Source: Bacteroidota bacterium (GTDB taxonomy: Bacteria; Bacteroidota; Bacteroidia; NS11-12g; UBA955). Taken from it: DNA of 32,000 nucleotides. Both the position numbers and the translations under genes were made by a program. The stretch is taken from positions 1,474 through 33,473 of the forward strand of contig JBEGUW010000009.1 in the NCBI GenBank assembly GCA_041178665.1, written 5' to 3'. Position 1 is the stretch's first letter; each line of letters starts with the position of its first letter. Below the pieces are notes generated by a model, which was not told where the DNA came from, ran no database searches, and was given only the letters and a program-made list of their open reading frames with translations. This document shows, in pieces, positions 16,219 through 32,000 of the stretch.

Positions 16219-16241
16219 TCAATCATCTTCATTTCTTTAAA

Positions 16242-16272
16242 GGGCCTCGTCTACGACGAGGCCCTTTTTTTT
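16242..16272. terminator. Rho-independent, probably bidirectional terminator
   Basis: Perfect 10-bp GC-rich stem GGGCCTCGTC/GACGAGGCCC (16242-16251 / 16255-16264) with a TAC loop, followed by T8 (16265-16272) and preceded by AAA. Sits between the convergent csp and GH29 genes. Confidence 0.85.
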
Positions 16273-16298: not shown

Positions 16299-17897
16299 TC
16301 ACTCAAACTCTAATCGCCAAACCAAAGCCGGCGGCATATCGCGATAAGATTCCGGCTTGATGATTCTACTGCCGCTCGGCCCCACCGATTCCACTTTCCT
16401 AACTTGATAGGCCACCTCCTTGGGCAACTTCAATGTCTGATCACCCACAACAGAAACCGTTTCCATCTTCATATCATAACCCAACAACTGAACCCTACAC
16501 CTCGACACAACCTTTCTGGCCTCATCCTTGGGCAACATTGAATCCCTCCGCTCAGACCAAACCCTTGCCAATTCACCCAAATCCAATCGCAACTCCTTAC
16601 CCAAATCAATATCATCCCTCAAAATCGCATATACCACCCACTTCCCATTCTCCAATTTCGAAGTAAACATCCACTCTTGGGCCTTATACTTCCATTGAAA
16701 ATATGGCGCAATGGGCTCCGTGCCGTAAATGGCCTCGCCATTCACCTTCATCCAAGCCCCAATTTCCTCCAATCGCTTGTAAGCCGCAGAATCCCACTCC
16801 CCCGTGGCACTGGGCGCGATATTCAGCAAATAATTCCCTCCCCGAGAAACAATCAAACACAAATTGTAAATAATCTCGTTGATAGACTTGTACTGCTCAT
16901 TTTTCACGTAACTCCAACTCCCGCCCATCGTCATACAGGTCTCCCAAGGATAACTCAGTGGCTTCTGAGGTATCTGTTGCTCTGGAGTGAGATAATTCTG
17001 ATTCGGACCCTCCACCGCGCGATCCACCACAATCAACCCCGGCTGATAACTGCGCGCCATCTTCGCGATTTCATCCATTTTGATGTCTTGGTTGATGACC
17101 TTTCCTTTCCACAATCCCGATCCGGGCGATGCCGGCTGCACCTGTCCGCCGTCCAACCACAACAAATCCATCTTGCCATAATCCCTTACCAATTCCTTAA
17201 TTTGATTTGTGCTATACTGACGAAACTTGTCCCACTTCTTAGGATACCGCTCCAAATCATAATTCGGATTTCTGTCCATCGGCGGGAAATACGGATCCCA
17301 ATAATACGGACTGTGCCAATCGGGTTTTGAGAAATATGCCCCAACCCAAAGTCCCTCCTTGCGAAAGGCATCAAATACTTCCTTGGCGATGTTCGCCCTA
17401 GGATTCGTATGGAATGGGGTATTGGGCGATGTGATCTTGTAATCGCTGTACTTGGTATCGAACATGGCAAACCCATCGTGGTGTTTGGTGGTGAACACCA
17501 TGTACTTCATCCCCGCGTCGCGGGCCGCGGAGGCCCATTTCTCTGGATTGAATTTCACCGGATTGAACGTATTCTGCAAGCCCTCATACGCCTTCTTGTA
17601 CTCAAAATAATTCTGGGCATACGGCCCGCGACGCTCGCACCACGGTTCGTCTTCCGGACAAATACTCCAACTCTCCACAATCCCCCATTGCGAGTAGGGT
17701 CCCCAGTGCATCAACAATCCAAACTTCATATCACCCCATGCCGCCAATTTCTGCTGCACCAACGTATCCGTGGGCGGATAGTACTTCTGCAAATGATGCT
17801 CCTGTGCCAAAACGGCGCTGCTTATCGAACAGCAAAACAGAAGAACCCCTAGTTTAAATCCATTCAGCTTAGCTGTCTGAAAACCTATATTTCTCAT
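16299..17897 (-). CDS. Alpha-L-fucosidase, GH29 family (secreted)
   Basis: ATG 17895-17897; the ORF-track M1 at 17909 is a GTG. Signal peptide MRNIGFQTAKLNGFKLGVLLFCCSISSAVLAQ. GH29 hallmarks FGLLMHWGPYSQ, KYMVFTTKHHDGFAMFDT and DLLWLDGG. Confidence 0.9.
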   Translation of the reverse strand: MRNIGFQTAKLNGFKLGVLLFCCSISSAVLAQEHHLQKYYPPTDTLVQQKLAAWGDMKFGLLMHWGPYSQWGIVESWSICPEDEPWCERRGPYAQNYFEYKKAYEGLQNTFNPVKFNPEKWASAARDAGMKYMVFTTKHHDGFAMFDTKYSDYKITSPNTPFHTNPRANIAKEVFDAFRKEGLWVGAYFSKPDWHSPYYWDPYFPPMDRNPNYDLERYPKKWDKFRQYSTNQIKELVRDYGKMDLLWLDGGQVQPASPGSGLWKGKVINQDIKMDEIAKMARSYQPGLIVVDRAVEGPNQNYLTPEQQIPQKPLSYPWETCMTMGGSWSYVKNEQYKSINEIIYNLCLIVSRGGNYLLNIAPSATGEWDSAAYKRLEEIGAWMKVNGEAIYGTEPIAPYFQWKYKAQEWMFTSKLENGKWVVYAILRDDIDLGKELRLDLGELARVWSERRDSMLPKDEARKVVSRCRVQLLGYDMKMETVSVVGDQTLKLPKEVAYQVRKVESVGPSGSRIIKPESYRDMPPALVWRLEFE

Positions 17898-17945
17898 TTG
17901 ATTTTTCACCTTTATTCAATTTTTCTTTAATGAAATCCCCACCAC

Positions 17946-19520
17946 TTAATGAAATCCCCCCGCACCACGATACAACGAAAGCGGGCCTTTCAACTTCAAC
18001 TTCAACACGGTAACATCTGAATCTAATGCATCCACCGGCACCTCCATAAACACCGTCCCGGGCACCGAACTCCAGGAGATTTTACCCACGACTTTGGGCC
18101 TCAATTTGCCTTCAACGCCCAACACTTCCGCCGATAAAATCTCATTCCTCAATCCCTTTACCATCACCGAACACGTCAAACCAGAACTGCCATCCAATTC
18201 GATATGATCATCTCCCACTTTGCCCAACACTTCGTTTATAGCCTCCTCCAATTCTTCCTCATTGATGTATTTATCGTCTTTGTCAATCCCTTGTACTTGC
18301 GTTAAAAACAAATACAAAATCGTAGAATCCTTGCTAATCGTGCTTGGACCATAGAAATGTCCCGCTGGCATCCCCGCCAAACTACCATAAATGGCTTCGG
18401 CGTGCTTGCTCGTCCAACGACCCAAATCTTTTAGCAATCGGGTTTGTTCCCAAGTAATCGTGCCATCGGCCTTGGGCCCAATATCCAACAACAAATTTCC
18501 GCCCATCCCCAAACACTCCGAAAAAATTCGAATCACTTCGTTCGAAGTCTTCATCAATGTATCGTTCGGACGCCATCCCCAGTTGTCGTTGCTCGTCATA
18601 CACAACTCCCACAAAGTGCCGTGCGCTTTCCCATCCAATCCAACGAGAGTGGGTCTTTCTATCGGCATATTCTGTTCTGGCGTTGCATAATCACCGTAAC
18701 CCTGCAACCGTCCGTTCATGATGGCATTGGGGTTGGCGGTCAATATATCCCGACGGATCTTTGGCGCATTCCACTCCTCATTGCTATGCTCCCAGTCCCC
18801 ATCAAACCAAAACAAATCGGGGTGAAACTGTGTACTCAACTCGCCAATCTGACCGTGCATAAATTGTAGAAAGCGCTGCCATCGCATCGGATCCTCTGCC
18901 AATTTATACCGACCTTGATCGTTATAAAAACCCGGATAATCGTTGTGCGACCAATCCAAAAGCGAATAATACGCGCCAAACTTAAGACCTTGTTCCCGGA
19001 GGGCGGAAGCAAAAGGAGCAATCACATCGCGTTTGGCAGGGGATTGTGCGACAACACTCAAAGGCAATTTCGCATTCCACAAAGCAGGTTTTTGCATTTT
19101 CAAAGGATCCTTTGCACTCAAACTCCAAGGCGTGTTTGGGGTCAATTGCTGGGTGTTCCACAAGGCAACGCCATCGTGATGCTGGGTCGTAATCACCGCA
19201 TATTGCGCACCGCTCTCTTTAATCAATGTCGCCCACGCTTTAGGGTCATATTTTTCCGCACCGAAGCCTTTCAGCTGACCCATATAATAGGGATATGTCG
19301 TATTTCGGCTATGAAAACTCCAACTTTCCGATGTCCCTTCCACCGCGTAAATCCCCCAGTGAATAAAGATTCCCAACTTAGCATCGGCGAACCACTGCAT
19401 TTTTGGGGCTATACTATCCGCACTGAACCCTTTCGCCATCAAACCGCCACCGCCAAAAAATCCCTGCACCAACCCCATCAAACCCACCAAAAAAACCACC
19501 GAATGCCGTATTCTTTTCAT
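17946..19520 (-). CDS. Alpha-L-fucosidase, GH29 family (secreted), second paralogue
   Basis: ATG 19518-19520; the ORF-track M1 at 19541 is a GTG. Signal peptide MKRIRHSVVFLVGLMGLV. GH29 hallmarks LGIFIHWGIYAV, QYAVITTQHHDGVALWNT and DLFWFDGDW. Confidence 0.9.
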   Translation of the reverse strand: MKRIRHSVVFLVGLMGLVQGFFGGGGLMAKGFSADSIAPKMQWFADAKLGIFIHWGIYAVEGTSESWSFHSRNTTYPYYMGQLKGFGAEKYDPKAWATLIKESGAQYAVITTQHHDGVALWNTQQLTPNTPWSLSAKDPLKMQKPALWNAKLPLSVVAQSPAKRDVIAPFASALREQGLKFGAYYSLLDWSHNDYPGFYNDQGRYKLAEDPMRWQRFLQFMHGQIGELSTQFHPDLFWFDGDWEHSNEEWNAPKIRRDILTANPNAIMNGRLQGYGDYATPEQNMPIERPTLVGLDGKAHGTLWELCMTSNDNWGWRPNDTLMKTSNEVIRIFSECLGMGGNLLLDIGPKADGTITWEQTRLLKDLGRWTSKHAEAIYGSLAGMPAGHFYGPSTISKDSTILYLFLTQVQGIDKDDKYINEEELEEAINEVLGKVGDDHIELDGSSGLTCSVMVKGLRNEILSAEVLGVEGKLRPKVVGKISWSSVPGTVFMEVPVDALDSDVTVLKLKLKGPLSLYRGAGGFH

Positions 19521-19552
19521 ATTTTGCAGGCAATTTAACACGGAAAAAGGAT

Positions 19553-20707
19553 ATGCGAAAAGTTTTGGTCTCAGGATGTTTTGATATGATGCATAGCGGA
19601 CACATCGCCTTTTTGAAAACCGCGGCCGATTTTGGTCAAGTTTTCGCCTGTATCGGCAGCGATGAAACCGTATTTTCGCTCAAAGGCCGATACCCAATCA
19701 TCAACCAATCCGAGCGTGCTTTTTGCCTCGATGCGTTAGATTCTGTTTTTCAAGCCCGTGTAAGTCGCGGATCCGGACACCTCGATTTTTTACCCGAATT
19801 GCTAGAAATCAAACCCGATGTTTTTGTGGTGAATGCAGATGGAGATTCCGCCGAAAAAAAAGCACTCATGTCCCAACATGGCATCGAATACATTGTTTTG
19901 GATCGCATCCCCGCGGAAAATTTGCCCCCCAGAAGCACGACCGCGTTGCGCACGATTTGCGACATCCCTTATCGACTTGATTTGGCAGGGGGATGGCTCG
20001 ATCAACCGTTTGTGAATGCGTTGGCTAGTGGACCGGTGATCACCATATCCGTAGAACCAACACACGATTTCAACAACCGCAGCGGGATGTCGTCTAGTAC
20101 CCGTAAAGCCGCCATAGAACTTTGGAAAACGCAGATCCCCGATGGAAATCGCGAGTTATTGGCTAAGACCTTGTTCTGTTTTGAAAATCCTCCTGGCACC
20201 AAAGATGTGGCGGGTTCACAGGATGCCATTGGCGTGGTATTTCCTGGGCTAAATTGCATAAAATATGGCGAGCCCGGCAGTTATTGGCCCAGTAGAATCG
20301 AAACGATTTTAAACGATGATGTTTTGGCGTTCCTTGAATCGCGATTGTGGTTATTACCTCTCGGCGAGCGTGAAGCAGGGTATTCAGTTTTGGAGAACAC
20401 CCGCATAGAACCGGCTGCAGCGGCGGCCCTGGCCGCCGCTGCAGCAAACCTATTCCTCGCAGCGACAAATAAAGACGCCCGTGGAGTTGGAAAAGCAATG
20501 ACCGCATCCTTTGAAGCCCAGATTCAGATGTTCCCGAACATGACCACCAGCAGCATTCAAAATACCATCCAACAGTGTTATACAGAATCACCCTCGATCC
20601 TCGGACATAAACTCTCCGGTGCTGGCGGGGGTGGCTACCTCGTCCTCTTTTCCGAGCATCCCACCGACAATACACTCCAAATAAAAATCCGTCGCGCGGC
20701 AAATTGA
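19553..20707 (+). CDS. Fusion protein: N-terminal cytidylyltransferase-like nucleotidyltransferase plus C-terminal GHMP-type sugar kinase (putative fucose kinase/nucleotidyltransferase)
   Basis: 384 aa. Residues 1-134: GCFDMMHSGH (GxFDxxHxGH) and RSTTALR. Residues 139-384: PYRLDLAGGWLDQP, SGMSSST, GSQDAIGVVFPGLN and KLSGAGGGGYLVLF. First gene of an operon with fucP and a mutarotase. Confidence 0.75.
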   Translation: MRKVLVSGCFDMMHSGHIAFLKTAADFGQVFACIGSDETVFSLKGRYPIINQSERAFCLDALDSVFQARVSRGSGHLDFLPELLEIKPDVFVVNADGDSAEKKALMSQHGIEYIVLDRIPAENLPPRSTTALRTICDIPYRLDLAGGWLDQPFVNALASGPVITISVEPTHDFNNRSGMSSSTRKAAIELWKTQIPDGNRELLAKTLFCFENPPGTKDVAGSQDAIGVVFPGLNCIKYGEPGSYWPSRIETILNDDVLAFLESRLWLLPLGEREAGYSVLENTRIEPAAAAALAAAAANLFLAATNKDARGVGKAMTASFEAQIQMFPNMTTSSIQNTIQQCYTESPSILGHKLSGAGGGGYLVLFSEHPTDNTLQIKIRRAAN

Positions 20708-20757: not shown

Positions 20758-22059
20758 ATGCGCTATATCTACTCCCTCTTTTTCCTCTGGGCCATCGCCC
20801 ATAACCTCAACCCCCTGCTGATTCCGCATCTGAAAAAAGTTTGCGAACTATCCGACCTACAATCGGCGCTTGTGGATTCTGCCTTCTACATCGGATACTT
20901 TATCATGGCGCTTCCCGCCGGCGCCTATATCAAACGATACGGCTACACCAAAGCAATCACAGTGGGTTTGATGCTATTTGGTGTTGGCGCGTTAATGGTC
21001 GGTGCCTTTGGCTCCCAGCAACAATTCTACGCCGCACTTGCCGGTTTATTTACGATGGCAGCCGGTCTCACATTCCTTGAAACAGCCGCGAATCCTTTGG
21101 TAACGCTTTTAGGGAAACCCGAAACAGCCACCACCCGCCTCAATCTGGCGCAATCATTCAATGGCCTCGGTGCCGTGATTTCCGTCTTTGTGGGTGGGAT
21201 GATTCTATTTCCAAATTCAACCACCGATATCGCCTCAAATGCCATTGCTGTAACACCAGACGAAATTGCTGACACACTCTCGATACAAGCCGAAAAGCTC
21301 ATCAAACCCTATTTCTTCATCGCGATAATTACCGTTTCACTGGGCAGAGCTTTTTGGCGAGGCTGGATCAAATTGCCAGAAATCCCATCGAGCCAAAATA
21401 CAGAATCGCAAGACAATCCAAAATCGAGCAACTTCCTAAACCCCACCGAACCTTACCTCCAACCCAATCTCTCCTTGGTGCAGCAAATTCGCAGTTTACT
21501 CACCGCGCCCAACTACAACCTCGGCTTATTGGCTCAATTTTGCTACGTGGGTGCGCAAGTGGGCGTGGGAAGTTTCTTTATTCGATACGCCACAATCCAC
21601 AGCCATATCCAAGAATCCGTTGCAGCCACTGCGCTCTCGGCAGGTTTATTGCTTTTCATGACCGGCCGATTCCTAGGTACTTTTTTGATGCGATTTATTC
21701 CTGCAGCCAAACTCCTATTGATTTACGCAAGCATTTGCATCGTTTTATGCTTATTTGTGTCGCTCAACGCCAGCGCAGCAGGTATGTGGATCCTCATTCT
21801 ATTGCAATTTTTCATGAGTATCATGTTCCCCAGCATTTTTAGTTTGTCGTTGGGCCAACTCAAACAATCCCCACCGATGGCTTCTTCCTTGCTAATCATG
21901 AGCATCGTGGGCGGCGCCATTTTCCCACTTGCAATGGGATTTCTATCGGATCAATCTAGCATCCAATACGCCTACCTCGTCCCAGCCCTTTGCTTCGTCG
22001 CCGTTGCGATTTTCGCAAAAAGAATTTCAGCATTGGCGAATTCTGCAACAACATTGTAA
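20758..22059 (+). CDS. fucP: L-fucose:H+ symporter permease (MFS, FucP family)
   Basis: 433 aa. SLFFLWAIAHNLNPLLIPHLK, DSAFYIGYFIMALPAG, FLETAANPLVTLLG, RLNLAQSFNGLGAV and LAQFCYVGAQVGVGSFFIRYA closely parallel E. coli FucP as I recall it. Confidence 0.9.
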   Translation: MRYIYSLFFLWAIAHNLNPLLIPHLKKVCELSDLQSALVDSAFYIGYFIMALPAGAYIKRYGYTKAITVGLMLFGVGALMVGAFGSQQQFYAALAGLFTMAAGLTFLETAANPLVTLLGKPETATTRLNLAQSFNGLGAVISVFVGGMILFPNSTTDIASNAIAVTPDEIADTLSIQAEKLIKPYFFIAIITVSLGRAFWRGWIKLPEIPSSQNTESQDNPKSSNFLNPTEPYLQPNLSLVQQIRSLLTAPNYNLGLLAQFCYVGAQVGVGSFFIRYATIHSHIQESVAATALSAGLLLFMTGRFLGTFLMRFIPAAKLLLIYASICIVLCLFVSLNASAAGMWILILLQFFMSIMFPSIFSLSLGQLKQSPPMASSLLIMSIVGGAIFPLAMGFLSDQSSIQYAYLVPALCFVAVAIFAKRISALANSATTL

Positions 22060-22083: not shown

Positions 22084-22422
22084 ATGAAGCAATTTGCACT
22101 CGCCCTCGACCTAAAAAACGACCCACATCTGATTGCTGAATACGAAGCGCATCACCAGGCTGTTTGGCCAGAAATACTGGCGAGTATAAAGGCGTCGGGC
22201 ATTCTGGATTGCAGTATTTATCGCATCGAAAACCGACTCACCATGGTATTGAGCACAACGGACGAATTTGATTTCAATCAGAAGGCCATCGACGATAAAA
22301 ACAACCCAAAAGTACAAGAATGGGAAACATTAATGTGGAAATACCAAGAAGCGCTACCCACCGCCAAACGCGGAGAAAAATGGAAACTAATGAAGTTGAT
22401 TTTTCAACTTTCCAATATATAA
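22084..22422 (+). CDS. RhaM/DUF718-family 6-deoxy-L-hexose mutarotase (L-fucose or L-rhamnose mutarotase)
   Basis: 112 aa. The pattern EYEAHHQAVWPEILASIKASG...SIYR...W..LMWKYQEALP matches the RhaM family (Y..H...WPE ... W..M). Context suggests fucose. Confidence 0.85.
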   Translation: MKQFALALDLKNDPHLIAEYEAHHQAVWPEILASIKASGILDCSIYRIENRLTMVLSTTDEFDFNQKAIDDKNNPKVQEWETLMWKYQEALPTAKRGEKWKLMKLIFQLSNI

Positions 22423-23595
22423 TAACGCAAACAACAGGGTAATGCAAATCATTATATAAGACGAAAAAATCGGGATGCAGCCGGTCTTACCCAACGTAAA
22501 AAAAAGGAAACCCCAAAGGAAGATTCTAAAGCCCTCCTGACAAAAATATATCCCTAAATATTTATGCCAACGGACACTGGCGCTGAGAATCCCCCAGCAA
22601 ATAAAAATGGCACAGGTGGATTTTAGAGACATATCCCATCCCTTCGACCAAAAAATCATATAGAACAGGCCCAAGGCACACAAAATAATCTGCGCCAAGA
22701 CATAGTTTTTTTGATCATCAATGGGTTGAAATTGCTTCGCTGGTATCTTGGTCTTTCCCACCATATAATCTGGAACATCCTTTGGCTTGCTAAAGAAAAA
22801 GGCAAATACATCTTCAATCCGTTGACCCAACTTTAATGGCAGCATCAACTGTCTAAACCCATATGTATGCGCCGCCAAAATGGTCATATTTCCTGTTTGA
22901 TCGGTAATGCCATATTTCACAACTTCAGTTTCCGGCTCGTAAGTTCCAAAAAGACGATCCCAAATCACAAACATCCCCCCATAGTTCTTGTCGAGATAGC
23001 GATCATTCACTCCATGATGGACCCTGTGTGTACTCGGCGTGACAAGGACTTTCTCAATGAACCCTAGCTTAGGCACCACTTGAGTATGCAATAGGAGTTG
23101 ATACAAGGCATGGCCTACTAAAACCAGCACAATCACGTCGGCAGAAAATCCCAAAATAGGAAGGGCAATCCAAAAGCACGTCCTAACGATATACTGAAAA
23201 ATTGAAATCCGAAAACCCACGGAAATATTGTAATGCTCACTTTGATGATGCAAACTATGAACGGCCCACAAAAACCTCACTTCATGTCCAAGCCTATGAT
23301 ACCAATACCAAACAAAATCTGTAACCAATAAACATAAAATTACACCCAACCATCCCTGGGGCATTGCAAAAATCCCAAATCGATTGCCAATGGCCGACCA
23401 AATCACATATTGCGCACCATCAAAAAACAAACTAAACAATCGATCACTCATGCCACAGCTCACATTTGTTATCGTATCAGCCACGTTATATAATGCGATT
23501 TTTTGTTTTCGCTGCATCCATATTTCAGCCATCAAAATACATATTATACCCAAAAACCCGGCATACATAAACAAGCTATACAAATCAAATTTCAT
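22387..23595 (-). CDS. Fatty-acid hydroxylase superfamily (sterol-desaturase family) membrane protein with an extra C-terminal multi-TM domain
   Basis: His boxes HRLGHE, HSLHHQ and HRVHHG, plus NYGGMFVIWDRLFGT. ATG 23593-23595 is preferred over the ORF-track TTG at 23709 because a DNA-level direct repeat lies between them in different reading frames. Confidence 0.8.
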   Translation of the reverse strand: MKFDLYSLFMYAGFLGIICILMAEIWMQRKQKIALYNVADTITNVSCGMSDRLFSLFFDGAQYVIWSAIGNRFGIFAMPQGWLGVILCLLVTDFVWYWYHRLGHEVRFLWAVHSLHHQSEHYNISVGFRISIFQYIVRTCFWIALPILGFSADVIVLVLVGHALYQLLLHTQVVPKLGFIEKVLVTPSTHRVHHGVNDRYLDKNYGGMFVIWDRLFGTYEPETEVVKYGITDQTGNMTILAAHTYGFRQLMLPLKLGQRIEDVFAFFFSKPKDVPDYMVGKTKIPAKQFQPIDDQKNYVLAQIILCALGLFYMIFWSKGWDMSLKSTCAIFICWGILSASVRWHKYLGIYFCQEGFRIFLWGFLFFTLGKTGCIPIFSSYIMICITLLFALLYIGKLKNQLH

Positions 23596-23650
23596 CTCAG
23601 TTGCTATAAAATCCTGAGATTCGAAATTGTAACTTATTACAAGGCAATCA

Positions 23651-23698
23651 TTACGGAAAAACGCAACTGTGCCATAGTTTTTTACGGAAAATCGCAAC
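23651..23698. repeat. Two copies of a 17-bp direct repeat (candidate operator) upstream of the hydroxylase-family gene
   Basis: TTACGGAAAAACGCAAC (23651-23667) and TTACGGAAAATCGCAAC (23682-23698), 16/17 identical, 31 bp start to start. Confidence 0.6.
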
Positions 23699-23726
23699 AC
23701 AATCCCCAACTAAGGCAGATAAAGCC

Positions 23727-25312: not shown

Positions 25313-26671
25313 ATGAAAAACACATCACTCAACAAGAAAAGTTTGTTATTGCTTGTTTTAGTATTTTTATCAAGTCGATTTGCCACAGCACAGACCTCAT
25401 ATTTCCCGCCACTCACCGGCAACTGGGAAACCATTACACCGAGCAGCCTCGGTTGGTGTAACGAGAATATCGATAGCTTATACAACTACCTCAATCAAAA
25501 AAACACAAAGGCCTTCATCGTATTGAAAGACGGAAAGATTGTCCTTGAGAAATATTTCGGAAATTTTACGCAAGACAGTATCTGGTATTGGGCATCAGCG
25601 GGCAAAACACTTACCGCATTTAGCATCGGACTGGCGCAGCAAGATGGATTATTAAAAATCCAAGAATCAAGCAACAAGTATTTGGGAAAGGGTTGGAGCT
25701 CTTTAACATCAGCTCAGGAAGATAGCGTTACCATTAGACATCACTTAACGATGACAACAGGGCTCAACGATGCTGGGGCTGACCCAGACTGCACCCTTGC
25801 ATCGTGCTTAACCTTCAAAGCAAACGCTGGCAGTCGCTGGGCCTATCATAACGCACCTTACACACTACTTGACAAGGTTATCGAAAGCGCAACAGGTGGT
25901 AATTTAAATAGTTATATCACCAAGAAATTCACTACAAAAATTGGGATGAAAGGATTATTTGTAAAATCCGGTTACTTAAACGTTTATTTTTCCAATGCGC
26001 GCACTATGGCAAGATTTGGATTACTCCTATTAAACAAGGGAGTTTGGGACGGCACAACAATTCTTTCAGACACGCAGTTTTTTAAACAACAAACCAATAG
26101 TAGTCAAACCATCAATCCAAGTTATGGTTATTTGACCTGGCTCAATGGCAAATCCTCGTTTATGGCACCTGGATTTCAACTAAAATTCAATGGCAGTCTG
26201 AACCCCGATGGGCCAAACGATATGTATTGCGCATGGGGAAAAAACGGACAATATATTGATGTAGTACCAAGTCAGAAATTGGTTTTGATTCGAATGGGTA
26301 ACGCACCAGGTGGCAGCGGATCAGCATCGATGGCCGTTGGATTCAATAATGAAATTTGGCAATACATGAACCGATTGCCCTGTAAAAATAACACGGTAAA
26401 TTTTGAAAATCCCCCTTTCTCGATTGGCCCAAACCCTGTAAAAGTTGGTTCGAACATCAATATAACTGCCGGGAATAATCCATTGAATTCTACCGTAAAA
26501 AATGGCACTGTGTCTATCGCCGACAATCTAGGTCGGATCGTCATCGAAACCCCATTCAACCCCTCAGAGTACTTCACTTTGCCCATCAACATCAAACCAG
26601 GAATCTATTTCATACGCATTTCAAGTAACTCTCATCAGGGCCGGAGTCAGCGCTTGCTGGTCATCGACTAA
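25313..26671 (+). CDS. Beta-lactamase-fold serine hydrolase with a T9SS C-terminal sorting domain
   Basis: 452 aa. Signal peptide. SxxK (WASAGKTLTAF), YxN (WAYHNAPY) and a KNG third motif (WGKNGQY). C-terminal roughly 85 aa (GPNPVKVGSNINI...GIYFIRISSN...QRLLVID) resembles a type A Por/T9SS CTD. Confidence 0.8.
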   Translation: MKNTSLNKKSLLLLVLVFLSSRFATAQTSYFPPLTGNWETITPSSLGWCNENIDSLYNYLNQKNTKAFIVLKDGKIVLEKYFGNFTQDSIWYWASAGKTLTAFSIGLAQQDGLLKIQESSNKYLGKGWSSLTSAQEDSVTIRHHLTMTTGLNDAGADPDCTLASCLTFKANAGSRWAYHNAPYTLLDKVIESATGGNLNSYITKKFTTKIGMKGLFVKSGYLNVYFSNARTMARFGLLLLNKGVWDGTTILSDTQFFKQQTNSSQTINPSYGYLTWLNGKSSFMAPGFQLKFNGSLNPDGPNDMYCAWGKNGQYIDVVPSQKLVLIRMGNAPGGSGSASMAVGFNNEIWQYMNRLPCKNNTVNFENPPFSIGPNPVKVGSNINITAGNNPLNSTVKNGTVSIADNLGRIVIETPFNPSEYFTLPINIKPGIYFIRISSNSHQGRSQRLLVID

Positions 26672-29143: not shown

Positions 29144-30313
29144 TTACTGAAAAACTCTTACAAAATCGACCTCCATAGACTGAGGGAATTTGGTATTCAC
29201 ATCAGGATTCCCGCCAAAGTTGCCACCCACGGCCACATTGAAAATGAAAAAATGAGGCTCGTTAAAGGGATAAGCAGCCTTACCCACATTGGCAGCTTTG
29301 AATGTGAAATACAACTGATCATCAACAAACCATTGCATTTGATCCTTAACCCAAATCAAGGAAAACACATGAAACTTATCGGCAAATGACCCAGAAGTTA
29401 AATTGAATTCTTTTGTCATGTAACTATTCCCACCTCCAACATCACTCCAATGCGGTGTGCCGTATACTCTATTGGGAATATTCCCCTTATATTCCATAAT
29501 ATCAATTTCACCACAACCGGGCCAACCCACCGTGGAAATCTTATCGCCCAACATCCACAATGCCGGCCAATACCCCTGTCCCTGAGGCAATTTTGCGCGT
29601 ATATCAATTCTACCAAAAACAAAAGACTGTTTGCCCTGGGTTTTAATTCTAGCCGATGAATAATTCGCACCTTGTACCGATTCCTTCCTTGCTGTGATTT
29701 TCAATTTACCATTACTCACCTCCACATTCTTAGGACCAGACTGATAATACTGAAGCTCATTATTGCCCCAACCCCAATTGCCTTGACCTACCTCATAAAC
29801 CCAATTTGACAAATTCAGACTGTTCCCTTCAAACTCATCAGACCAAATCAACCCATATCCAGGATATGACTTGGGCGTATTATACCCATCCACGTTTGAA
29901 ATCACACCTGCATCGTCATTCTTGATCTTAACAGTACAAAAAGGCGTGGGAATATTCAACCCCTCTGGACTAGAAAAAGAAACCCAAAAAACCTCATCCA
30001 ACTCCACAGATGTATCGCCAAAAATCTGCAATGAGATTTCAGCTGACTGCTGTCCCGCGGGAATGGTAATTGTTCCTGATTTGGAAGCATAATCCACGTC
30101 AGATTTTGCCGTAGAAGAAGTCGTTTTAAAGAAAAATCTAACATCCCGGCCACTAGGAGTATTCAGTGACACGATACATCGGACAACGTGTGAGCTGTCG
30201 CCTTCTAAGACGTTAATATCAGAAAGCAACAACGAAGGAATAGGGTCGTTTTGCTTGCAACCATTTGCTATAAATAAAAGTATTCCAACACCAAAAAAAG
30301 TTAAAAATCGCAT
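29144..30313 (-). CDS. GH16-family endo-beta-glucanase (laminarinase-like) lipoprotein with an N-terminal Calx-beta domain
   Basis: 389 aa. Lipoprotein signal LLFIANGC. Calx-beta segment (KSDVDYASKSGTITIPAGQQSAEISLQIFGDTSVELDEVFWVSF). GH16 catalytic motif GEIDIMEY (ExDxxE). Its ATG overlaps the upstream gene's stop by 1 nt. Confidence 0.9.
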   Translation of the reverse strand: MRFLTFFGVGILLFIANGCKQNDPIPSLLLSDINVLEGDSSHVVRCIVSLNTPSGRDVRFFFKTTSSTAKSDVDYASKSGTITIPAGQQSAEISLQIFGDTSVELDEVFWVSFSSPEGLNIPTPFCTVKIKNDDAGVISNVDGYNTPKSYPGYGLIWSDEFEGNSLNLSNWVYEVGQGNWGWGNNELQYYQSGPKNVEVSNGKLKITARKESVQGANYSSARIKTQGKQSFVFGRIDIRAKLPQGQGYWPALWMLGDKISTVGWPGCGEIDIMEYKGNIPNRVYGTPHWSDVGGGNSYMTKEFNLTSGSFADKFHVFSLIWVKDQMQWFVDDQLYFTFKAANVGKAAYPFNEPHFFIFNVAVGGNFGGNPDVNTKFPQSMEVDFVRVFQ

Positions 30314-31185
30314 TATTCAGGCGACGACAATGTAAAACGCCAAAGACCGGCACCGAAATTAACTTCTACCTCGGTAAAACGTTCAGTAGCCGTTTTTGTC
30401 TGCGATAAAACCTTATAATCTACGCCCATTTGAGGTGTACTCACTTCCTTTCCATTGGCTACTTTTTGAAGTCCGATGTAGGCACCTTTTCCAACCATTT
30501 TTAGCATCAATGGGTCAGTTCCCCCGCCAGTAAACATAAACTGATGAACCCCGCTACCCCAAGCCTTTCTGTCGGCAGAATACGACGAATCTGGAAAACA
30601 ACCATCGGGAGAAAGTCCAATTAGTGCCTCGCCCCAAACATCTCCCTTGGTATCGAATTTCACCGTACCATCTCCGTTAAATGTCCACTCATCATTAAAA
30701 GTACAAGCGCGAGAAACAATTCCTGGCATATCAATATACCACCATGTTGAACTGCCATCTGGGGGACCCACCCATAAAGCACCTGCCTTTTTTGCCAATT
30801 TCCATGTCCGAGAAGTGCAATCGGTCATAAACTCCATTGGAGCAGCACACGGCGGCTTATCGTTTTTAAAAATTTCTACGTATCCAGAAACCGTATCACT
30901 TCCACCCTGAGCATATACCGTAAGCAAAACCTTGTATTTACCCTTTTTTACGATGTTTGCTGTCACTTCCTTTCCCGACAAATTCCCCAAGCCGTCGATC
31001 GACCAGTTGAACAAAAAAGGATCGCCCTGCGATGTGCTGATTAGTTTAATGTTGTTAGAATCCACATAACTAACAGAAAATGCGGCTTCAGGTAAATCTT
31101 TCAGTTCAATTCGATCCCTTTTGCAAGCAAAGACGGACAATGTCAGTAACGATGCTACAATCCAAATCCCATTATTTTTTTTCAT
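30313..31185 (-). CDS. PKD-domain lipoprotein, candidate surface glycan-binding protein of the PUL
   Basis: 290 aa. Lipoprotein signal LTLSVFAC. PKD-like segment (AAFSVSYVD...FNWSIDG...GKYKVLLTVYAQGGSDTVSGYVEI). Trp/Cys-rich C-terminal domain. Position between SusD and GH16. Confidence 0.7.
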   Translation of the reverse strand: MKKNNGIWIVASLLTLSVFACKRDRIELKDLPEAAFSVSYVDSNNIKLISTSQGDPFLFNWSIDGLGNLSGKEVTANIVKKGKYKVLLTVYAQGGSDTVSGYVEIFKNDKPPCAAPMEFMTDCTSRTWKLAKKAGALWVGPPDGSSTWWYIDMPGIVSRACTFNDEWTFNGDGTVKFDTKGDVWGEALIGLSPDGCFPDSSYSADRKAWGSGVHQFMFTGGGTDPLMLKMVGKGAYIGLQKVANGKEVSTPQMGVDYKVLSQTKTATERFTEVEVNFGAGLWRFTLSSPE

Positions 31186-31207
31186 CCTATTTTAAATTAA
31201 AATTCTA

Positions 31208-32000
31208 TTAGTAACCCTTATTTTGAGTGATTACACCCTGACTTGCATCGATTTCATTTTGCGGAATAGGCAAAAATTCACTCACTCCTTTTATAAATCC
31301 ATCAACAGATAAAACGCTCGATGCTTGGTTTGTTCTTACCAAATCAAAGAACCTATGTCCTTCTGTTGCCAATTCCAACTGCCTTTCTTTATATATATCC
31401 AATAGCAACAAATTCCCCGTTGATGCAATGGCTGACAATCCAACCCGGTTGCGAACGCGATTCAAATAAGTCTGTGCCGCTGCATCACTACCACCGCTGC
31501 GGACCAGGCCTTCGGCGGCCATTAACAAAACATCAGCAAATCTAATTTCCCTAATATTGTTACCCCAATTCAACGCAGGCTCTCCATCAGATGCCTTATT
31601 TGCTGCGATAGGCGCATATTTCCGAATAAAGAACCCTGTATTTTGATATCCTTTAGAATAGGATCCCCCCGAAATTGTATCCGCATCAATAATAGTGTGC
31701 GCAAATCTTGGATCGCCACGCAACAGATCGGCAAGAGACTTATTGACAGGAGCAAACCCCCAACCTGGAGCAAATAAAGGTCCGTTATAATCGCGCATGC
31801 CTACAAATTGTACAGCCACGTTTCCTTCGCCCCAACCCGAGCCAAATGAACCCCAATCTGATCGTGCATTTTCACTATATGCAATTTCAAAAACCGACTC
31901 TTTGCCAAATTCACTAGAAGGTTTAAAAATATCGCCATAATTCTTCTCCAAATCATACGCATTAGAATTAATCACCTCTTCACACAACTTTGCGACATCG
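31208..32000 (-). CDS. SusD/RagB-family nutrient-binding outer-membrane lipoprotein (C-terminal part; the gene continues beyond the window)
   Basis: The frame stays open to the window edge; the ORF-track M1 is a TTG. C-terminal SusD-like features RQLELATEGHRFFDLVR and LPIPQNEID...NKGY. Confidence 0.85.
   Translation of the reverse strand, partial: DVAKLCEEVINSNAYDLEKNYGDIFKPSSEFGKESVFEIAYSENARSDWGSFGSGWGEGNVAVQFVGMRDYNGPLFAPGWGFAPVNKSLADLLRGDPRFAHTIIDADTISGGSYSKGYQNTGFFIRKYAPIAANKASDGEPALNWGNNIREIRFADVLLMAAEGLVRSGGSDAAAQTYLNRVRNRVGLSAIASTGNLLLLDIYKERQLELATEGHRFFDLVRTNQASSVLSVDGFIKGVSEFLPIPQNEIDASQGVITQNKGY

Follow-up and report, generated by a model that had tools for sequence, protein, structure and literature searches.

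The window analysed here is a 32,000-nucleotide stretch of a Bacteroidota bacterium genome (GCA_041178665.1, contig JBEGUW010000009.1, positions 1,474 to 33,473), within which a single gene at 19553..20707 (+) probably encodes a compact bifunctional L-fucose salvage enzyme, i.e., a functional analogue of the Bacteroides fragilis L-fucokinase/GDP-L-fucose pyrophosphorylase Fkp that would have been assembled from different parts. The open reading frame (ORF) opens with ATG and specifies 384 amino acids plus a stop codon. The gene and its two domains are as follows:

19553..20707, + strand: fusion gene, HIGH-type nucleotidyltransferase plus short GHMP fucokinase-like domain (ORF, translation, Pfam, NCBIfam, AlphaFold2 [AF2], Foldseek)
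19553..19954, + strand: residues 1-134, cytidylyltransferase-like Rossmann domain with H14-S-G-H17 and R127-S-T-T130 (PF01467, NCBIfam, Foldseek)
19964..20704, + strand: residues 138-384, shortened GHMP kinase-like domain (profile vs. PDB, Foldseek, residue mapping)

An earlier, sequence-only reading of this DNA had described the ORF and quoted its signature motifs, all of which are present at the residues given there: GCFDMMHSGH (8-17) and RSTTALR (127-133) in the N-terminal half, with PYRLDLAGGWLDQP (139-152), SGMSSST (177-183), GSQDAIGVVFPGLN (221-234), and KLSGAGGGGYLVLF (353-366) in the kinase half. Its division of the protein into a HIGH-type N-terminal half and a GHMP-like C-terminal half is likewise borne out, by profile searches as well as by Foldseek. 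Residues 6-134 match PF01467 (CTP_transf_like) across model positions 2-132/133 (E-value 1.9e-8, 35 bits vs. a gathering cut-off of 21). The best NCBIfam match of this domain is rfaE_dom_II (HldE domain II, TIGR02199), at 53.2 bits (E 2.7e-14) against an equivalog cut-off of 181.5 bits; as judged from these scores, the fusion protein is a relative of HldE and not an HldE orthologue. Using the family profile, N-domain matches among PDB sequences comprise ECT (1e-28), 3glv (9e-21), TagD (9e-18), and HldC (3e-15), and the single fusion protein searched against the same sequences matches 3glv and ECT through its N-terminal half, with Fkp matched at motif I and motif III. Structural comparison of the N-domain with the PDB via Foldseek gives target-normalized template-modelling (TM) scores of 0.87 for TagD (2b7l), 0.78 for 3glv, and 0.70 for HldC (5xf2), in line with an AF2 model that adopts a TagD/HldC-type Rossmann-like fold, with a predicted local distance difference test (pLDDT) score mostly above 85 over residues 1-120. 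Across 119 homologues, H14, G16, H17, R127, S128, and T129 are invariant, with T130 at least 90% conserved. A sequence-based call of ATP, CTP, or GTP preference was dropped, since NCBIfam and PDB scores leave the N-domain approximately equidistant from HldC, TagD, ECT, and archaeal PPAT; base recognition in the HIGH fold is carried largely by backbone atoms.

The C-terminal half is laid out as motif I (139-152), a P-loop (176-183), a GSQD segment (221-224) containing the putative general base D224, and a glycine loop (355-361). As anticipated from its motifs, its nearest solved relatives are the fucokinase domain of Fkp and the heptokinases WcbL and HddA: the C-domain family profile detects the Fkp kinase domain at E 3.6e-18, HddA-like 3k85 at 1e-9, and WcbL at 3.5e-8, while Foldseek ranks WcbL at the top (5e-10), with the fucokinase part of Fkp at 1.3e-9. 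PF08544 (GHMP_kinases_C) matches residues 304-372 at E 9e-4 with 20 bits against a cut-off of 21, a threshold that is passed by relatives of the protein (29-31 bits, e.g., P0126 with 30.9 bits). PF00288 (GHMP_kinases_N) has no match in the fusion protein at E ≤ 1e-2.

This domain has a drastically minimized N-lobe, a point already raised in the sequence-only reading and with which both the Fkp and WcbL alignments and the AF2 model agree. Profile alignment matches motif I of Fkp and the strand after it (589-619) to fusion-protein residues 138-168; the glycine loop/P-loop lies at 712-720 in Fkp (PMC11982464) and at 176-183 in the fusion protein, such that the strand after motif I is separated from the P-loop by 8 residues as opposed to approximately 93 in Fkp. 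Against WcbL, position 26 of the C-domain profile already maps to residue 96. The deletion amounts to approximately 85 residues relative to Fkp and approximately 67 relative to WcbL; the AF2 model contains merely two strands ahead of the P-loop helix, and the GHMP N-lobe is incomplete. Motif II is degenerate, with N-R-S-G-M-S-S-S-T (175-183) positioned at the N-terminus of a modelled helix (182-191), and R176, S177, G178, M179, and S182 are invariant within it. Motif III (S355-G-A-G-G-G-G-Y362) is invariant from G356 to Y362, with S355 at least 90% conserved.

The residues that surround the substrate in Fkp can be followed into this shortened domain. The Fkp crystal structure highlights Arg592, Trp599, Asp601, and Thr602 in motif I, Ser719 and Ser720 in the glycine loop, Gln761, the general base Asp762, and the backbone of Ala900 (PMC11982464). 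Their aligned counterparts in the fusion protein are R141, W148, D150, Q151, S181/S182, Q223, D224, and A357, with motif I (carrying R141, W148, and D150) aligning to Fkp 589-603; by this mapping, the fucose-binding and catalytic residues of Fkp are retained. R141, D150, Q223, and D224 are invariant among the 119 homologues, and W148 is at least 90% conserved. Even in a 35-sequence alignment reaching down to 27% identity, R141, D150, and D224 remain at least 90% conserved, and the consensus has W at position 148. In the N-domain, conservation of the HxGH and RSTT motifs is as strong as that of these kinase-site residues. The catalytic pair of WcbL, R13/D163, corresponds to R141/D224.

A first AF2 model, built with 30 close homologues, scored a pLDDT of 72, and less than 50 around the P-loop and GSQD segment; it was replaced by a second, built with 119 sequences. 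The latter has a mean pLDDT of 88.7, falling below 50 only in the inter-domain linker (130-132), and a predicted TM (pTM) score of 0.66. Structure prediction, which the sequence-only reading had put forward as a way of judging whether the two active sites are juxtaposed, thus recovers both folds, with a relative domain orientation that is not confident. The N- and C-domain assignments themselves are secure because Foldseek returns both folds.

Among characterized systems, Fkp (PDB 5yys, 9iip, 9iit) is similar to the protein in organization. Both have the nucleotidyltransferase at the N-terminus and a GHMP fucokinase (or a homologous kinase domain) at the C-terminus, share the fucose-binding and catalytic residues, and would follow the same pathway from fucose to fucose-1-phosphate to nucleoside diphosphate (NDP)-fucose. 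Fkp differs in its length (949 amino acids), in its kinase domain (approximately 430 residues vs. approximately 245 in the fusion protein), and in its GTP-using pyrophosphorylase, which is an unrelated α/β plus β-helix domain rather than a 134-residue HIGH-type Rossmann domain. Consistent with this, the Fkp equivalog NF009948 yields 32 bits, from residues 296-372 only, against a cut-off of 721, and in place of an N-terminal GFPP pyrophosphorylase domain there is PF01467. The nucleotidyltransferase would thus be a non-homologous replacement of that in Fkp, with the order of activities along the chain kept as in Fkp. The sequence-only reading had considered the domain order to differ from that of Fkp and HldE; this holds in relation to HldE, in which the order is reversed, but not in relation to Fkp. 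HldE and HldC (D-glycero-β-D-manno-heptose-1-phosphate adenylyltransferase; PDB 5x9q, 5xf2) share the N-domain fold (TM 0.70), and HldE provides a precedent for a HIGH-fold enzyme that acts on a sugar-1-phosphate and is fused to the kinase making its substrate; its kinase, however, is N-terminal and of the ribokinase fold, and its context is heptose rather than fucose. The HddA/WcbL heptokinases (PDB 3k85, 4usk/4usm, 4n3o), which rank with Fkp as the nearest structural relatives of the C-domain, have the same catalytic Arg and Asp but are stand-alone, full-length GHMP kinases (approximately 345 residues) with a complete N-lobe. They are not known to carry the tryptophan found in the AGGW(T/L)D motif of Fkp-type enzymes.

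The genes around the fusion gene are concerned with fucose:

20758..22059, + strand: fucP, L-fucose:H+ symporter of the major facilitator superfamily, 50 bp downstream of the fusion gene (TIGR00885, 290 bits vs. cut-off 280; MFS_1)
22084..22422, + strand: RhaM-family 6-deoxyhexose mutarotase gene, 24 bp downstream of fucP (PF05336, E 8e-29)
17946..19520, - strand: GH29 α-L-fucosidase gene, divergent from the fusion gene (PF01120, E 3e-76)
16299..17909, - strand: second GH29 α-L-fucosidase gene, downstream of the first (PF01120, E 5e-95)
16239..16267, no strand assigned: G+C-rich hairpin with a 13-bp stem and T run, just past the stop codon of the second GH29 gene (consensus match in a terminator-like scan)

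Pfam and NCBIfam searches confirm the initial description of the fusion gene as the head of an operon with fucP and the mutarotase gene, facing two GH29 fucosidase genes. The first of these likely starts at the ATG at 19520, as its translation would then have a signal-peptide-like N-terminus (MKRIRHSVVFLVGLMGLVQG), and the hairpin is a possible terminator closing the fucosidase pair. Approximately 32 bp separate this likely start codon on the minus strand from the ATG of the fusion gene (19553), and a TATTTTG sequence at 19520-19526, resembling the Bacteroidota -7 element TAnnTTTG, overlaps the GH29 start codon; with such spacing, two divergent promoters must overlap coding sequence. At the other end of the locus, the mutarotase gene and a convergent gene of the fatty-acid-hydroxylase family (22387-23709, minus strand) overlap at their 3′ ends by 36 bp (22387-22422). 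No fucose-catabolic genes (fucose-pathway aldolases, isomerases, or dehydrogenases) are found in the 32-kb window, leaving activation as the sole locally encoded fate of imported fucose.

What is observed here are the domain identities, the active-site conservation, and the operon, which other lineages keep or carry in fused form. From these we infer the two catalytic steps, the anomer logic, which nucleoside triphosphate (NTP) is used, and where the product goes, according to the following pathway. L-Fucose would be freed from glycans by the two secreted GH29 fucosidases and imported by FucP, after which the RhaM-family mutarotase would equilibrate its anomers and thereby supply the β-anomer. 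The short C-terminal GHMP domain would then use ATP to phosphorylate β-L-fucose at O1, with D224 serving as the general base, R141 and the P-loop (176-183) stabilizing the transferred phosphate, and W148, D150, and Q223 holding the sugar. β-L-Fucose-1-phosphate and an NTP would subsequently be joined by the HIGH-type domain to yield NDP-β-L-fucose and pyrophosphate, with H14, H17, and the R127-S-T-T motif binding the nucleotide phosphates. The activated fucose would ultimately enter surface-glycan synthesis. A single-chain kinase plus nucleotidyltransferase acting on imported L-fucose, as originally suggested for this gene, is thus supported by the active-site residues, the operon, fusions found elsewhere, and Akkermansia genetics (both detailed below), though not proven.

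The fusion had been regarded as unusual in the sequence-only reading, an impression that did not survive a census of the family. A word-indexed search (90%-identity clusters, E ≤ 1e-3) recovers at least 7653 clusters among the matches listed, a profile search recovers 7987 clusters at E ≤ 1e-20, and an exhaustive search of 50%-identity representatives recovers 165 clusters at E ≤ 1e-30. With approximately 8000 sequence clusters in at least 4 phyla, the architecture is common, and the HIGH-GHMP fusion is therefore not unusual in its frequency, only in being uncharacterized. As judged from source names and record titles, members occur in Bacteroidota (Paludibacter, Dysgonomonas, Flavobacterium, Prevotella, Saprospiraceae, Pedobacter) and beyond (Opitutaceae, Kiritimatiellia, Anaerohalosphaeraceae, Anaerolineae), and are named at source only as "cytidyltransferase-like protein" or "adenylyltransferase/cytidyltransferase family protein."

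For a survey of gene neighbourhoods, genes were called in 80 genome loci and the neighbours clustered. The 10 close relatives (L001-L010; 77-93% identity) keep the GH29-GH29/fusion/fucP/mutarotase arrangement as far as their contigs reach. Homologues at 50-56% identity have a different layout, with many located in envelope-glycan clusters: a WecA-like GT4 gene lies at -1 in 9 loci, a DUF6016 (PF19480) protein of approximately 136 residues is encoded at +1 in 10, and genes for GDP-mannose 4,6-dehydratase (Gmd), DegT aminotransferases, and Bac_transf sugar transferases occur in 9, 7, and 6 loci, respectively, the Gmd count being out of approximately 70 loci with gene calls. Neighbours read by eye in Dysgonomonas are Gmd, MurB, MurA, and Fe-ADH. 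A RhaM mutarotase gene directly follows the fusion homologue in L017, L039, and L043, and follows fucP in L009. The expected conservation of the fucose neighbourhood thus holds in L001-L010 and in a clade of triple fusions but is absent around most other homologues.

In these triple fusions (P0122, P0311, P0333, P0338), mutarotase, HIGH, and GHMP domains are joined in one chain. The N-terminal domain of P0311 is homologous to the mutarotase encoded in the window, and its gene is followed by that for a FucP homologue (32% identical, E 1e-59); the P0338 gene is followed by a GH29 gene. Additional chains carry the short kinase domain with no Pfam-detectable HIGH domain, attached to Gmd in P0213 and to a GT2 and a DXD glycosyltransferase in P0161 and P0182, with the catalytic motifs retained in all three. 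Through these fusions, the module is connected with the handling of 6-deoxyhexoses and with glycan synthesis on evidence from outside the window. In another member (P0127), the whole HIGH-GHMP unit is fused to a PNP_UDP_1 nucleoside-phosphorylase domain.

The possibility, left open in the sequence-only reading, that this architecture had already been characterized proved correct in so far as the same architecture and role have been proposed for Amuc_1591 of Akkermansia muciniphila, though no biochemistry accompanies the proposal. Lakey et al. (Gut Microbes, June 2026; PMC13313206) mapped D-arabinose-resistance mutations to this gene, with all 12 spontaneous resistant mutants from two A. muciniphila strains carrying V176G, G326E, or a frameshift in it; inhibition by D-arabinose was relieved by L-fucose or mucin. 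In their ColabFold model, an adenylyl/cytidylyltransferase domain at the N-terminus is followed by a fucokinase-like C-terminal domain, the latter described only as a substrate-binding domain with no kinase claim, and the protein was proposed on genetic evidence as a "fucose nucleotidyltransferase" feeding lipopolysaccharide (LPS), with the nucleotide left as "NDP" (PMC13313206). The architecture is unmentioned in a paper on FKP phylogeny (PMC12732313) and in one on Ralstonia fucose salvage (PMC8275744).

Using the Amuc_1591 sequence from supplementary sheet S5 of the Akkermansia study (PMC13313206), BLASTP aligns it with the window protein at 32% identity over residues 1-189, and hhalign against the family profile covers both domains (residues 1-366; 317 columns, probability 99.7%, E 8.6e-26). 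The two proteins share their two-domain architecture and its order, homology along the full length, the proposed role in fucose activation, and the HxGH, STT, AGGWLD, RSGxxxS, G-x-QD, and GGG-Y motifs. Amuc_1591 nonetheless belongs to a distant subfamily (approximately 27% identical overall), differs around the P-loop by 5 inserted residues ahead of it and the absence of a segment behind it, and is reportedly co-transcribed with murJ rather than with fucP or fucosidase genes. The evidence in its favour is genetic (D-arabinose suppressors, fucose rescue), a phenotype reported only for Akkermansia. In the hhalign-based alignment, G326 of Amuc_1591 corresponds to the invariant G358 in the motif III loop, beside the residue whose backbone binds the phosphate of fucose-1-phosphate in Fkp, and V176 falls in the small insertion just ahead of the P-loop; both substitutions are therefore located in the kinase-like domain. 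D-Arabinose is a fucose analogue for Fkp-type enzymes, and the positions of the substitutions would fit a requirement for D-arabinose phosphorylation. The comparative evidence gathered here extends the published work (PMC13313206) by mapping the active-site residues, delimiting the N-lobe deletion, surveying operons and fusions, and sizing the family, and the window protein represents a different subfamily with a much clearer fucose-operon context.

Several points weigh against the fucose-salvage interpretation. Fucosidase and fucP genes are linked to the fusion only in the clade of the window and the triple-fusion clade, with most homologues having unrelated or generic envelope-related neighbours, and the relative orientation of the two domains is not confident in the AF2 model (pTM 0.66). 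Kinase activity may itself have been lost, given an N-lobe deletion of 65-85 residues, the lack of a GHMP_kinases_N match, a GHMP_kinases_C score 1 bit short, and a degenerate motif II (RSGMSSST). In addition, nucleotidyltransferases of the HIGH fold are not known to use GTP, while all known fucosyltransferases use GDP-fucose. As to the nucleotide, biology points to GTP, both through these fucosyltransferases and through Gmd as a neighbour and fusion partner, while fold precedent would point to ATP or CTP. It is conceivable, though less likely than not, that the HIGH domain makes an undescribed ADP- or CDP-β-L-fucose that would be read by dedicated glycosyltransferases; our literature search found no mention of either compound.

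The doubts about the kinase half lead to an alternative that we consider unlikely, namely that the C-domain is an inactive sugar-binding or sensor module (akin to Gal3p in relation to galactokinase) that gates or targets the N-terminal nucleotidyltransferase, with the substrate made elsewhere, either as fucose-1-phosphate from an unlinked kinase or as a non-sugar phosphate such as glycerol-3-phosphate. The size of the N-lobe deletion, the degenerate motif II with no GHMP_kinases_N match, and the description of the Amuc_1591 C-domain as solely substrate-binding (PMC13313206) would all suit such a module. Against it, the (near-)invariance of D224, R141, the P-loop serines, and the GAGGGG loop is unexpected for mere binding, the operon contains no other fucokinase gene, and the Akkermansia suppressor G326E strikes the phosphate-binding glycine loop. 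Moreover, most contacts of AMP-PNP in WcbL go to its phosphates and ribose (PMC4691232), and the N-lobe deletion therefore need not abolish ATP use or activity.

Activation of a heptose or other non-fucose sugar, by an HldE analogue with a GHMP kinase that makes an ADP-heptose-like donor amid coincidental fucose neighbours, is a more distant prospect still, which we regard as quite improbable. HldE domain II is indeed the best NCBIfam match of the N-domain, and the heptokinase WcbL the top Foldseek match of the C-domain; furthermore, one family member (P0131, below) is encoded in an LPS-core cluster with GT9, LpxD, LpxI, and Kdo kinase genes. However, rfaE_dom_II scores 53 bits against its equivalog cut-off of 181, the profile match to Fkp (E 3.6e-18) beats those to heptokinases (1e-9 or weaker), and the family retains Trp148, counterpart of the Fkp tryptophan that stacks on C4-C6 of fucose (PMC11982464). 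The conserved GH29/fucP/mutarotase linkage and the fusions, as well as the D-arabinose/L-fucose genetics in Akkermansia (PMC13313206), also speak for fucose, although some distant subfamilies may differ in substrate. Finally, the gene leads a locus for uptake and hydrolysis, much as in a catabolic operon, and the kinase could initiate an unrecognized fucose-1-phosphate degradation with the N-domain in another role. We find this very hard to credit with no fucose-pathway aldolase, isomerase, or dehydrogenase gene in either operon or window, homologues in glycan-biosynthesis clusters beside Gmd and glycosyltransferase genes, and invariant HxGH and RSTT motifs in the N-domain.

At present, Fkp is the only enzyme to which fucose salvage in bacteria is attributed, and BLAST does not find it in many organisms in which fucose is plainly recycled. 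If it acts in fucose salvage, the family described here would constitute another, widely distributed pathway by which free fucose becomes an activated donor, via a protein 2.5 times smaller than Fkp that is spread over gut and environmental phyla. This would bear on the decoration of their own surfaces by mucin and glycan foragers, would explain the toxicity of D-arabinose in Akkermansia, and could make available a compact catalyst with which to produce fucose nucleotides chemoenzymatically. Were the product ADP- or CDP-fucose, the approximately 8000 clusters in Bacteroidota, Verrucomicrobiota, Planctomycetota, and Chloroflexota would mark an unrecognized second currency of fucosylation; were it GDP-fucose, the N-domain would be the first GTP-using sugar-1-phosphate nucleotidyltransferase of the HIGH fold, and its partner would be the smallest functional GHMP sugar kinase.

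A number of divergent family members were encountered in the course of the census. P0131 (Anaerohalosphaeraceae; L082-L084, 6001-7620), found on 72 contigs, is a 539-residue protein in which two HIGH domains precede the short GHMP domain. Its locus is an LPS-core cluster with a gene of the GT9 heptosyltransferase family, genes for LpxD, LpxI, and Kdo kinase, several glycosyltransferase genes, and an MsbA-like ABC exporter gene, and the substrate of this subfamily could be heptose or another core sugar rather than fucose. P0152 is a stand-alone, 241-residue short GHMP-like domain (L089, 4001-4726; L090, 6001-6726; IMG/VR UViG_3300032216_000903, 94.8 kb) encoded in a phage-like row of genes for a DNA methylase, a UvsX-type recombinase, DnaB helicase, and ThyX. 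The start of the P0152 gene and the stop of thyX lie within a 4-bp overlap. P0152 has no tblastn match in the INPHARED phage collection, and its nearest relative, P0388 (92% identical), is a full fusion of 376 residues with an N-terminal PF01467 domain; this may represent phage capture of the kinase half alone. A free-standing kinase family, considered on the basis of 240-residue matches, is not borne out by the one match checked: P0152 does stand alone, but on a phage-like contig and with a bacterial fusion as nearest relative. A full-length, 384-residue fusion is encoded on a further contig classified as viral (L091, 5587-6741; IMG/VR UViG_3300024259_001450, 188 kb) and is 56% identical to P0152 over the C-domain. 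Among the close relatives, L001 (CAZZKP010000017.1) carries the complete GH29-GH29/fusion/fucP/mutarotase locus at 79-88% amino-acid identity in a metagenome-assembled genome titled "uncultured Bifidobacterium sp.," a title that is likely a binning or labelling error.

Elsewhere in the window, two regions bear out its origin in Bacteroidota. A beta-lactamase-family protein with a C-terminal sorting domain of the type IX secretion system is encoded at 25313-26671. At the end of the window (29144-31987), a GH16 gene product with a Calx-beta domain adjoins a truncated SusD-family gene, the two being part of a separate polysaccharide-utilization locus.

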